From assembly GCA_014905635.1 (NCBI GenBank), contig JABVCE010000002.1, forward strand, positions 992,001-1,056,000: a stretch of 64,000 nucleotides of DNA. The letters run 5' to 3'. The stretch comes from Scenedesmus sp. PABB004. Lineage: Eukaryota. The position numbers were made by a program, and so were the translations under genes. Shown piece after piece: positions 48,624 through 64,000 of this stretch. Within the stretch, counting starts at the first letter, position 1. Each line of letters begins with the position of its first letter. Below the pieces are notes generated by a model, which saw nothing but the letters and a program-made list of their open reading frames with translations, was not told the DNA's origin and searched no databases.

Positions 48624-51600
48624 ATGCCCCCAATCACGGCGCCGCTGCTGGCGGCCCGCCCCAAAGGTGCGCCGGGGCTTGTGTAGACGGCGACTGGGCG
48701 CGGATTGCCGCCCGCGCAGCGAACGCCGCGCTGCCCGCACCCGCGCCGTGCCAGCCAGCGGCGCCGCCGCTGCTCCGCGCCGCGCCGCAGCCCGCTTTGG
48801 CGGCGGCGGCGCCGGCCACGGTGCCCTGCAGGCACCGGCAGGTGCCGCGGGAGGGCAGGAGCTCAGACAGGTGAGCTGGCGGGGCTGGCGGGGCAGCGCG
48901 GCACAGCACGGCGCGCGCCGCGCGACGAACACACACGCGCCCGGCCTGCGCGTGACCGCCTCACCACAGGGCAAGCCGGGCGCGCCGCAGCCGCTGGCGC
49001 CGGACCGCCCCGACCGCAGCGCCGGGAGCGCGGCGGAGGAGGAGGACGACGGCGGCGGGGGCGCGGCGGGCGAGCAGGACCACCCGCACCTGCTGCCGGC
49101 GGTCATGGCGCCATACGTCACGCGGCCGGGCGAGACGCCGCGCCAAGTGTTGATCCAGAGGTGCGCGCGCGGCGCGCCGGCGTCGCTGGCCCGCGCGTCG
49201 GGCGGCGGCGCGGGGCGCGACCCGCGCACGCTGCGCGCCGCCGCAGGAGGCGCCGGCTCTACGCCGCGCAGAGCATCGCAGAGCTCGTGGCGCGCAAGGG
49301 GCTGGACCCGGCGGCGCTCGCGGGCGAGCCGGACTGGCGCGAGGTCGAGGTCTTTGACGACACCACGTTTGAGAGCCGCGAGCCGGAGCAGTGGGTGCCG
49401 CGCATCCCAGGTGCGCCGCCGCGGGGGCGGCGGCCGCCGGCACGGCGCTCCGCCCGCGGCGGGCGCGGCGCGTCAGCGAGGCGCACGCGCGGCGCCGCAG
49501 GCATCCCCAAGGCGAGCGCGCGGGTCGCGGTCGGCGGCGGGGACGGCGGCGGCGGCCTGGCGTGGCTGGACTGCACCGTGCTGGACCACGACGCGCCGCG
49601 CAACCGCTACCTGGTGCAGCTGCGCGGCGCCGGCGCAGGTGCCGTGAGCCCCGGCCCCGCCCCCGCCCCGTTCTGGGCGCCCCGGCTGGCGCTGTGCTTT
49701 GGTGCCGAGGACCCGGGCCTCTACGCGCGGCGCTTTGCAGCGGCGCTGGCCGGCCGCGCGGCCGCGGCGCGCGCGCTCGCGGCGGAGCTCGCCGTCGACA
49801 GCATGCCCGTGGACGACGTGCCGCAGCTCACCACGGAGGCGGTGAACCGGGTGCTCAACTGCGCGCTCAACAGCCGCAGGCTCAAGGAGCGGCTCATGGA
49901 CGCGAGCGCGCTCGTCAACGAGGCGCACCTGGAGCACGCGCGCGGGCTCAACAAGGCCGCGCTGCTGTCGCTCGCTGCGCGCGGCGACGGCGGCGGCGCG
50001 GCGGGCGCGCAGCTGCTGCCGCTGCTGGTGCCGGCGGCGCCGGCGCAGCGCGCTGCGCCGGCGCGCGGCACGCTGGCGATGCCCCCGGGGTATGACTTCC
50101 GCGCGCAGCTCGGCGAGTTTGCGTTCCGCACGCTGCTCACCAAGCCCGAGGTCGTCCACGCGCTCGCCAAGATCCGGGCGGAGCACGCCAAGGCGCGCGC
50201 GGCGAGGGCGGCGCGGCGGCAACGCGGGCAGCAGCACAGCGCAGCGCGACCGCAGCGCGACCGCAGCGCGACCGCAGCGCGGCCGCGCGGCACACGTTGC
50301 GCCGCCGCGTGCGCAGGTCGTGAAGCTCTGCCTGTTCAGCACCTTTTCGTCCAAGAGCGTGCGGCTGGAGGAGTTTGAGCAGGCCCAGGTCGCCGCGACT
50401 GACAGCGTGGCCAACCACCTGCGCGACAACTGGTCGGCGGCGATCAAGAACATCATCAAGTGCGCGCGCCGCACCGCCGTGCGCCGCTGGCCTGCGCCGG
50501 GCCATGAGAGGCCGCGTCCCCTGGCTCACCTGCCGCCCGCCACGCGGCGCGTCGCGTTGCGTCGCCGCGCCGCAGGCAGGCGTTCAAGGACGTGGGCAAG
50601 GGCTGGTACCACCTGGGCGAGGCGAGCTGGGAGACGTACCGCTTCAGCAAGCTGCGCCGCTTCCTGGGCCTCGTGCGCCTGGGCATGGAGGACGCGCTGC
50701 GCTCCCTCGCCAAGGGCAGCATGGCACTCTTTGTGGCGTTCATGCAGGCGCGGCCCCCGTCGCGGGGGCGCGGCGACAGCGGGGGCGCGCTGCGAGCGAG
50801 CGCCGCCGCGCCGCGCGGCCGGCGCGCTCCCCGAGCACCTGCAGCTGCCGCCGCGCCGGCCCCGCAGGCCTGCTGCGGCGACGCCGTGGACGTGGCGTCG
50901 CCGCCCGAGGTCGCGCTGCAGTGCAGGGACGGCGCGCGGCACGCGCCGCTGCTCCTGATGGAGCTGGTGGTCTCGCCGGACGGCGCGAGCTTTGCGTATG
51001 CGACGCCCGTCGACGCGATCCACGCGCGGGTCGTCGCGGTGTTTGACCGCGCGCTCACCAAGCTGCAGGCGCGCCCCGCGCGCGGCGGCGCTCGAGCCTT
51101 GCGCCGCGAGCGTCACCGCCCGCCTGCTCACACTGCCGCCGCCGCCGCGTTGACTGCTGCCTGCTGTCCACAGGGCCTGGCGCAGCTGGAGCCGGCCATC
51201 ATGGACCAGCTGTTCTGGCCCAGCGTGCCGCTGCTGAGCGCGGTGCACCCGCAGGAGGAGGTCGCCGTGCGCGCGCGACACGCGCTCTCGGGCTGCCTCC
51301 TCACCGCGCTGCAGCCGCTTCGCAGGTGGGCGCCGTGGCTGGTGCTGTGGGGCCGCGCGGGGCGGGGGCAGCGCTGGGCTCGCGGGCTGCAGCGGGGCTG
51401 CAGCGCGTGCTGTGCTGTGCGGGGGCCGCGGCCGCTGGCAGCTGCAGGCTCAGGCTCTGCAGAGCCTGAGCCTGCGCCTGCGCCGCCCGGCGGCTCCTCT
51501 CCGCCCCGCAGCCATCTCGCGCAATACGGCGCGTACGAGCCACTGCTCGGGCTGAACGTGGAGGCCCACGTGGACGCGCTCGCGGCCCCGGGCGGCGAGC

Positions 51601-63600: not shown

Positions 63601-64000
63601 AGGCCGACATGGACAACCTGGTTGGCGACGTGGTGCTGGCCGCAGGTGCCGCGCCGCGCGACAGCCGCGGCGCGGCGTGGCTTGCCTGTGCGGGCGGCGT
63701 GCCCCGCCGCTGTGCGCGCCACCCCTGCCGCCAACCTGGCCGCCCCGCCGCCGGCCAGGCGCGATCGCCTACTCCGGGCCCTTTGTGCCCAGCTACCGCG
63801 CGGCGCTGCTGGCCGACTGGACGGCCAAGCTCACAGACGTGGGCCTGCCGTTCAGCCCGCACGCGGGCCTCGCCAAGACGCTGGCCGACCCCGTGCAGGT
63901 GCGGCGGCGCCGGGCAGCGCCGGGTGCAGCCGCGTGGTGTGCGTCGGCGCCCACGCGAGCACCCTGAGCGCGCGCTCACGCTAGCGTGAGCCGCCGCCGC
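48624..64000 (+). CDS. Axonemal inner-arm dynein heavy chain, DNAH1-type; about 55 introns in the window; runs off the 3' end
   Basis: DNAH1-type N-terminus [22 protein letters not shown]...[15 protein letters not shown]. Also [29 protein letters not shown]-loops [26 protein letters not shown] and GVGGSGR, and stalk coiled coils. ATG 48624 is inferred from a consistent exon chain. Confidence 0.93.
54731..54834. repeat. (GGCA)26 microsatellite in a dynein intron
   Basis: Perfect tetranucleotide array, 104 nt. Confidence 0.95.

Follow-up and report, generated by a model that had tools for sequence, protein, structure and literature searches.

Frequent GC-AG introns in the green alga Scenedesmus sp. 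PABB004 and their dependence on an exonic AG

GC donors, the 5′ ends of introns that begin with GC instead of GT, are known from dinoflagellates. In the accessible parts of published surveys, GC-AG introns average 1.2% in plants (PMC6310983) and ∼1% in animals and fungi (PMC7072748), and human GC sites keep G at −1 and +5, which was read as U5/U6 cooperation (PMC11732430). A norm of ∼1% was also assumed in the original prediction for the DNA described here, 64,000 nucleotides of Scenedesmus sp. PABB004 (contig C13, 992001–1056000; hereafter the window), according to which about one quarter of the introns in a dynein heavy chain gene use GC donors. The norm holds for those groups, but a high share of GC donors has a precedent in another alga that the prediction overlooked, Emiliania huxleyi, where the available text gives 56–65% GC donors and ascribes them to GC content (PMC4028052). 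In the copepod Eurytemora affinis, 10–12% of donors are described as GA or GG, an exonic AG is required whatever the phase, and gene models are broken (PMC5714493). The highest GC-AG values in a table of 121 species, as far as that source is accessible, are all from green algae: Ostreococcus tauri (8.5%), Micractinium (7.0%), Micromonas pusilla (5.8%) and Chlorella sorokiniana (5.7%); Tetrabaena has 3.2% annotated GC-AG introns, and Monoraphidium, the one entry from the Sphaeropleales, 19 of 67,746 (PMC6310983). The near-zero value for Monoraphidium probably arises because annotation rarely calls GC. In the accessible part of a Chlamydomonas paper, GT is taken as the consensus and a case of GC use as unusual (PMC5881031). 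The term "GC-AG" is absent from the accessible portions of two Sphaeropleales genome papers, and a literature search, with most subscription journals outside its reach, did not turn up any account of common GC donors in this order. Genomic GC content is given as 72% for Raphidocelis, 65% for Monoraphidium, 57% for Tetradesmus, 51% for Chromochloris and 64% for Chlamydomonas (PMC5966456).

The assembly comprises 40.0 Mb in 80 contigs with 78% G+C. The nearest relatives of the proteins encoded in the window are from Sphaeropleales and other chlorophyceans; an exon of pyruvate kinase is 97% identical to Monoraphidium and an exon of SMC3 98% identical to Tetradesmus. Throughout, junctions were deduced from genomic DNA and protein homology, using a purpose-written spliced aligner of protein profiles to DNA in which the donor dinucleotide could optionally be left free. 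A look-up of transcript data for 26500–36400 of the window listed no RNA run, which weighs neither for nor against the junctions. The dynein profile was built from 21 homologous proteins, mostly intronless metagenome dyneins, and N-terminal protein fragments were left out.

The best PDB match of the dynein gene in the window is DHC2 (E 2e-50). Over the whole gene 68 introns were aligned, giving 4058 amino acids without a stop. From 49161 onward, 53 introns could be placed within the window, 14 of which start with GC, and probably two further 5′ introns lie outside the aligned part. The ∼55 introns and 14 GC donors proposed for this gene were therefore recovered, the latter at all 14 sites; an extra GC call, at 49402, results from misplacing the GT donor at 49411. 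Nearby GT donors had been put forward as the case that would undo the prediction. At all 14 sites except 50748, alignments limited to GT donors lose 17–89 score units and open 2–43 gaps or break; at 50748 a local test was undecided, and the GT-only alignment costs 14 units in wider context. The features are listed below, with a slash at the exon–intron border and the GT-only cost in score units.

48625..64000, plus strand: axonemal inner-arm dynein heavy chain, DHC2/DNAH1 type (DHC2/dynein-d ortholog); start codon uncertain, continues ∼5 kb beyond the window end
50193..50316, plus strand: GC-AG intron, AAG/GCGCGC, phase 0, cost 21.8
50748..50867, plus strand: GC-AG intron, CAG/GCGCGG, phase 0, cost 14, the least homology support among the 14
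51069..51173, plus strand: GC-AG intron, CAG/GCGCGC, phase 0, cost 20.4
53254..53364, plus strand: GC-AG intron, CAG/GCGCGG, phase 0, cost 33.0
53945..54056, plus strand: GC-AG intron, AAG/GCGCGC, phase 0, cost 20.0
54423..54551, plus strand: GC-AG intron, CAG/GCGCGG, phase 2, cost 39.0
54703..54922, plus strand: GC-AG intron, CAG/GCGCGT, phase 0, cost 41.4
56086..56209, plus strand: GC-AG intron, ATG/GCGCGC, phase 0, the sole non-AG case, cost 88.8
56745..56851, plus strand: GC-AG intron, CAG/GCACGT, phase 2, cost 19.1
57915..58031, plus strand: GC-AG intron, CAG/GCGCGC, phase 1, in the strongly conserved AAA2 motif, cost 35.0
58153..58264, plus strand: GC-AG intron, CAG/GCGCGG, phase 2, cost 73.1; three paralogs share the position (one GC, two GT)
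59955..60045, plus strand: GC-AG intron, CAG/GCGCGA, phase 0, cost 17.0
60475..60600, plus strand: GC-AG intron, AAG/GCGCGC, phase 0, cost 38.0; AAG/GT at the same position in the related locus L043
60892..61011, plus strand: GC-AG intron, GAG/GCGCGC, phase 0, cost 36.0

A long GGCA microsatellite (54728–54838) lies within the intron at 54703–54922.

The median score loss on barring GC donors was 33, compared with 24 on removing true GT donors. The lengths of 7 of the 14 introns are not divisible by three, so that these cannot be read through. When the donor was left free over the whole gene, 65 of the 68 junctions were as in the mode that allows GT and GC (47 GT, 18 GC), and the remaining three took other donors, shifted by 3–6 bases in poorly conserved stretches. 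The dinucleotides CG, CC and GG make up 17%, 11% and 10% of the local sequence (38% in total), yet only two such donors were picked, unlike what chance picks would give. One GC junction in the Prp8 gene is also fixed, its flanking exons matching the consecutive residues 1363–1433 and 1435–1488 of a solved algal Prp8. Although the junction at 50748 is weakly anchored, it is extremely unlikely that the GC calls reflect modeling errors, with GT sites close by as the real donors.

Dynein heavy chain genes rich in introns, at least seven in number (contigs C2, C11, C13, C17, C19, C23 and C24), align without obvious breaks, which indicates that the alga keeps flagellar motors. The window gene and six others, on seven contigs, formed the sample for donor frequencies. 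With the donor free, 385 introns were aligned in these genes, of which 225 were kept by a strict filter (gap-free, well-scoring flanks and a YAG acceptor) and 160 dropped. The retained junctions have 165 GT, 56 GC and 4 other donors, and GC donors occur in all seven genes. GC accounts for 25.3% of the 221 GT and GC junctions (95% confidence interval 19.7–31.6), in agreement with the quarter originally proposed. In a leave-one-gene-out check with a 2% GC prior, 50 of 56 GC and 160 of 165 GT donors were retrieved by an ab initio splice model that had the dyneins as its training set. Nine 20 kb regions chosen arbitrarily gave GC donors in 61 of 282 introns with the 2% prior, and raising the prior to 25% gave 83 of 301; AG/GC calls alone numbered 47 and 54, respectively. 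The modeled rate in random regions is bracketed by 18%–28%; for the whole genome, a share between one fifth and one quarter of introns is probably closer to the truth. At the level of DNA, frequent GC donors are confirmed as real and genome-wide. The highest count was seen in an essential splicing gene, Prp8 (contig C19, ∼497,400–510,300), with GC donors in 11 of 32 predicted introns, every one after AG.

The typical form AG/gcgcgc had been noted originally, although the rule was not used in interpretation; indeed, 13 of the 14 GC donors in the window gene are preceded by AG, the exception at 56086 following ATG. In the strict dynein set, 54 GC and 70 GT donors follow an exonic AG, as against 2 and 95 otherwise (p 3e-14). 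The share of GC is 49% after CAG (40/81; GC:GT 40:41), 10/24 after AAG and 4/19 after GAG, and the two non-AG cases represent a single event copied between paralogs. G at −1 is found in 94% of GT and 100% of GC donors (56/56), A at −2 in 47% and 96%, and G at +5 in 95% and 100% (56/56). Vertebrate GC sites usually match U1 closely at +3 and +4. Here, +3 is G in 96% of GT and 88% of GC donors, with A commoner in GC (12% vs 1%, p 3e-4), and +4 is C in 77% and 89%, with A in 7% of GC donors. Between −3 and +6, GC donors match the U1 5′ end at 4.96 positions on average and GT donors at 5.16, with a mode of 5 in both. Median intron length does not differ (121 for GC, 118 for GT). The acceptors of the 56 GC introns are CAG in 55 and TAG in one, and CTGAC- or CTCAC-like words are enriched in the 3′ part of introns (CTVAB in 22/56 GC and 77/165 GT, ∼40 bases before the acceptor).

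With GC at the start and AG at the end of homology-fixed junctions and G at −1 and +5, the introns are, as judged from sequence, of the U2-type GC-AG class. In U12-type introns the extended 5′ consensus has A, T, C and C after the dinucleotide. A minor (U12-type) origin was rejected, since +3 to +6 are G or A, C, G, and C or G in all 56; the U11 and U12 genes were not searched. Coding read-through was rejected as well: 40 of the 56 GC introns break the frame or hit a stop, and the in-frame, open remainder (16/56) is similar to that of GT introns (47/165).

At 36 intron positions common to dynein paralogs GT and GC alternate. One position is held by six paralogs; both copies whose exon ends in AG begin the intron with GC, and all four whose exon ends in CG begin it with GT. 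GC introns also occupy positions held by GT introns in L043. These alternations bear on a different origin, in which the GC introns would be recent transposon-derived introners with AG at both ends as a target-site duplication. Introners are known from Aureococcus. The exon end is identical to the intron end over two bases in 54 of 56 GC introns and over three in 39, and few intron positions are common with related loci (those in L085 and L030, one or two, may coincide by chance). The identity, however, drops to 15/56 at four bases and 3/56 at five and does not reach past the splice consensus. All-against-all BLAST of 221 introns revealed no family, the one full-length pair being due to gene conversion, and similarity within GC-GC pairs does not exceed that within GT-GT or GC-GT pairs. 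With paralogs and L043 also carrying GT introns at the same positions, an introner origin was rejected as very unlikely.

The full-length pair is the intron at 56086–56209, which is 90.6% identical to the same intron of the paralog on C2. Around it, ∼240 bases (about 56040–56282 vs ∼985,100–985,300 of C2) are 85%–98% identical, with flanks at 55%–80%. The pattern points to a recent gene conversion at AAA1 between anciently diverged dynein paralogs, by which the only non-AG GC donor was copied.

The spliceosomal small nuclear RNAs (snRNAs) do not bear out the modified U1 or U6 of the original prediction. Two U1 genes with identical scores were found, both with a canonical 5′ end. A DNA search of the assembly with the U1 body returned only these copies, and a pattern search that permitted G opposite +2 matched only the two canonical ends and none that pairs with C at +2. 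U6 has a canonical ACAGAGA box; a second U6 match, without the 5′ half, is a 3′ fragment at C77:376064–376120, ∼3 kb downstream of the intact gene. U5 loop 1 and the branch-recognition motif of U2 are canonical. A variant U1 or U6 that reads GC donors would have to have escaped these searches; Rfam scored part of the candidates (41/245 for U1, 48/671 for U6) and the assembly may be incomplete, and such a variant is most improbable. METTL16-like and SNRNP27 genes are present, and the prevailing C at +4 (77%–89%) is unlike the A or U classes linked to METTL16 in the accessible literature.

We propose, with a probability of about 0.7, that these are ordinary U2-type introns served by canonical snRNAs, in which +2 drifts from T to C under a C bias where pairing on the exon side compensates. 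A donor would have to match the U1 5′ end at about five of the positions −3 to +6. The intron side would have drifted to G-Y-G-C-G followed by C or G, so that the exon end, together with G−1, G+1 and G+5, would supply most of the support. In exons with a terminal AG, CAG being best and AAG next, pairing with U1 and with U5 loop 1 may offset C at +2 and leave selection against GC weak; a strong genomic C bias, by mutation or GC-biased conversion, could then convert ∼40%–50% of AG-ended donors to GC. With other exon ends, T at +2 would be nearly obligatory. Base pairing would thus be the cause of the AG rule, the frequencies would reflect a balance between bias and selection, and the sites would be expected to serve in cellular splicing. 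The proposal agrees with the case made for E. huxleyi (PMC4028052), with the G at −1 and +5 of human GC sites (PMC11732430) and with the better binding of the U1 small nuclear ribonucleoprotein to C than to A at +2 (PMC4383343).

The composition of the introns is in line with this proposal and with the extreme GC pressure originally invoked. Intron interiors hold 5.1 C per T; with this value as the neutral odds, scaled selection against C at +2 is estimated at about 1.7–2.1 after CAG and 5.5–6.0 without AG. The same aligner was run on 24 of 80 metagenome loci, whose taxonomy is not established and which mostly have few introns. In L035 (65% GC), 3 of 21 donors are GC, with A kept at +4; one fitted value for selection after AG predicts 3.0–3.4 GC donors there, and 3 of its 14 AG-donors are GC. 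Loci of lower GC content have 1/30 (L085, 51% GC), 0/14, 0/6 and 2/21 GC donors; L057, L082 and L090 are near-copies of L085 and were not pooled.

Several observations weigh against the compensated drift. Modeled U1 duplexes have a median of −5.8 kcal/mol for GC donors and −7.2 for GT donors and are thus weaker for GC (p 7e-4), and in the strict dynein set no stronger branch point or acceptor was found in GC than in GT introns. Exons contain 24 in-frame NAG/GCGCG decoys in 21,623 codons, so abundant that the donor motif alone cannot define a donor; AG/GCG is hardly avoided in exons (62% vs 67%, p 0.08), whereas AG/GTG is (44% vs 59%, p 9e-4). Avoidance of exonic AG/GCG was rejected as an independent proof because it is not significant. 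Donors are probably set apart from decoys by intron definition, with a branch point and a CAG acceptor ∼120 bases away. The neutrality of intron interiors is an assumption of the selection estimate. Finally, six lower-GC loci pooled (L040 left out) have 2 GC among 56 AG-donors where 4.8–6.9 are expected (hand Poisson p ∼0.15 and 0.03), which suggests that tolerance of GC may be somewhat higher in this alga. Composition would still account for most of the excess of GC donors, with a modest extra tolerance possible.

The under-representation of exonic AG/GTG could also hint at a systematic T-to-C error of the assembly consensus in the AG-GTG context. In columns that favor valine, however, the ratio of GCG to GTG is 9:50 when AG precedes and 46:368 in other contexts (p 0.38), with no excess of alanine codons after AG and well short of the 44% that such an error would need; the independent locus L035 has GC donors too. 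This explanation carries very little weight.

Extra tolerance would be expected if discrimination against C at +2 had been lowered by a change, particular to this lineage, in one of the spliceosomal proteins (U1C, Luc7, Prp28, another part of Prp8, Snu66 or others), with GC bias exploiting it. U1C (C1:4847313–4847369, minus strand) has Ala11 and Phe8 where the human protein has Thr and Tyr; a second U1C locus, with the same start, lies on C61, and the first exons of the two loci match identically. In the accessible part of PMC4383343, residue 11 hydrogen-bonds the backbone of the 5′ splice site. According to the same source, however, replacing Thr11 by Ala does not affect the growth of yeast (PMC4383343). 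GC donors here mostly lack A at +3 and +4 and T at +6, and the shortfall in lower-GC loci would also fit a protein change. Against this, four Prp8 exons (yeast-equivalent residues 1371–1441, 1443–1496, 1544–1579 and 1580–1662) are near-identical to solved chains, with conservative differences only, and GC is still strictly conditional on exonic AG. We regard a protein change as doubtful. It is unlikely, too, that the spliceosome has been altered through proteins rather than RNA to the extent that recognition has moved to the exon end plus G+1 and G+5, with +2 after CAG a nearly free pyrimidine and downstream context separating donors from decoys; Ala11 of U1C is the sole lead. If true, the alga would offer the green lineage a natural model, amenable to culture, in which proofreading at +2 is relaxed. 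Of the relaxed recognition originally envisaged, the tolerance of GC stands, but almost only after exonic AG, and a relaxation at the protein level is possible.

GC donors had also been claimed for other genes of the window. By homology this was upheld for pyruvate kinase, with one GC donor among five introns, and for SMC3, with six among 27 (a seventh GC call, at 33243, is a misplaced GT); sites in three further genes, given here under their original names, are predicted ab initio.

828..915, plus strand: probable GC-AG intron, AAG/GCGCGG, "polymerase" gene; ab initio only, 2% GC prior
15839..16021, minus strand: GC-AG intron, pyruvate kinase, CAG/GCGCGC; gap-free flanks scoring 39 and 38
25097..25221, minus strand: probable GC-AG intron, CAG/GCGAGG, "USP" gene; donor ab initio, acceptor read from the sequence
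32288..32435, minus strand: GC-AG intron, SMC3; homology, also used in public model P0283
32526..32714, minus strand: GC-AG intron, SMC3; homology, also used in P0283
34940..35093, minus strand: GC-AG intron, SMC3; homology, also used in P0283
36348..36454, minus strand: GC-AG intron, SMC3; homology, P0283 skips the exon before it
37475..37597, minus strand: GC-AG intron, SMC3; homology, P0283 reads through
39055..39158, minus strand: GC-AG intron 1 of SMC3; homology, missed in P0283
39925..40016, plus strand: probable GC-AG intron, CAG/GCGCGG, "SNAPC1" gene; ab initio only

The public model P0283 thus misses three of the six SMC3 donors, with a truncated start, a retained intron and a skipped exon as the result; annotations of GC-rich algae probably under-count GC donors. 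The other three are already in P0283, and the existence of GC donors is therefore implicit in the annotation, though their rate seems unreported. P0283 (29219–39173, minus strand) also merges SMC3 with a downstream sugar-dehydrogenase-like gene and uses a different GT donor at 35604. Intron 1 of pyruvate kinase (16819–17347, minus strand) has an unusual length of 529 bases and contains a short inverted repeat of lower GC content at ∼16930–17010.

The alga, with its canonical snRNAs, adds a member of the green lineage to the short list of eukaryotes with common GC donors, which makes the near-universal GT rule look like a threshold that composition can pass. The conditional rule (49% GC after CAG, 2% without AG) and the repeated changes between GT and GC provide a handle on the strength of donor selection.

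As far as the accessible texts describe them, ordinary plant and animal GC-AG introns share with those studied here G at −1 and +5, a YAG acceptor, canonical snRNAs and the replacement of GT by GC at existing positions (PMC6310983, PMC7072748, PMC11732430). In contrast to the ordinary ∼1%, GC-AG introns are about twenty times commoner here, with a GCGCGC-like intron side and only 12% A at +3 and 7% at +4; their share is about three times the top value of the species table, 8.5% in Ostreococcus tauri (PMC6310983). The non-GT donors of Eurytemora are likewise tied to an exonic AG and likewise damage automated gene models, but they are GA or GG, nearly all have A at +3, and the introns are described as recently gained (PMC5714493); a U1 variant was suggested for the copepod (PMC7072748), whereas none was found in this assembly. 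The closest likeness is to E. huxleyi, also a GC-rich alga with a high genome-wide share of GC donors, an AG acceptor and gene finders that under-call them. That species is a haptophyte of 65% GC with support from RNA and reverse-transcription PCR in the accessible text (PMC4028052), while the present alga is a chlorophyte of 78% GC with a homology-inferred share of ∼20%–25%. Beyond what that text reports, the exonic-AG rule is quantified and the snRNAs have been checked in Scenedesmus.

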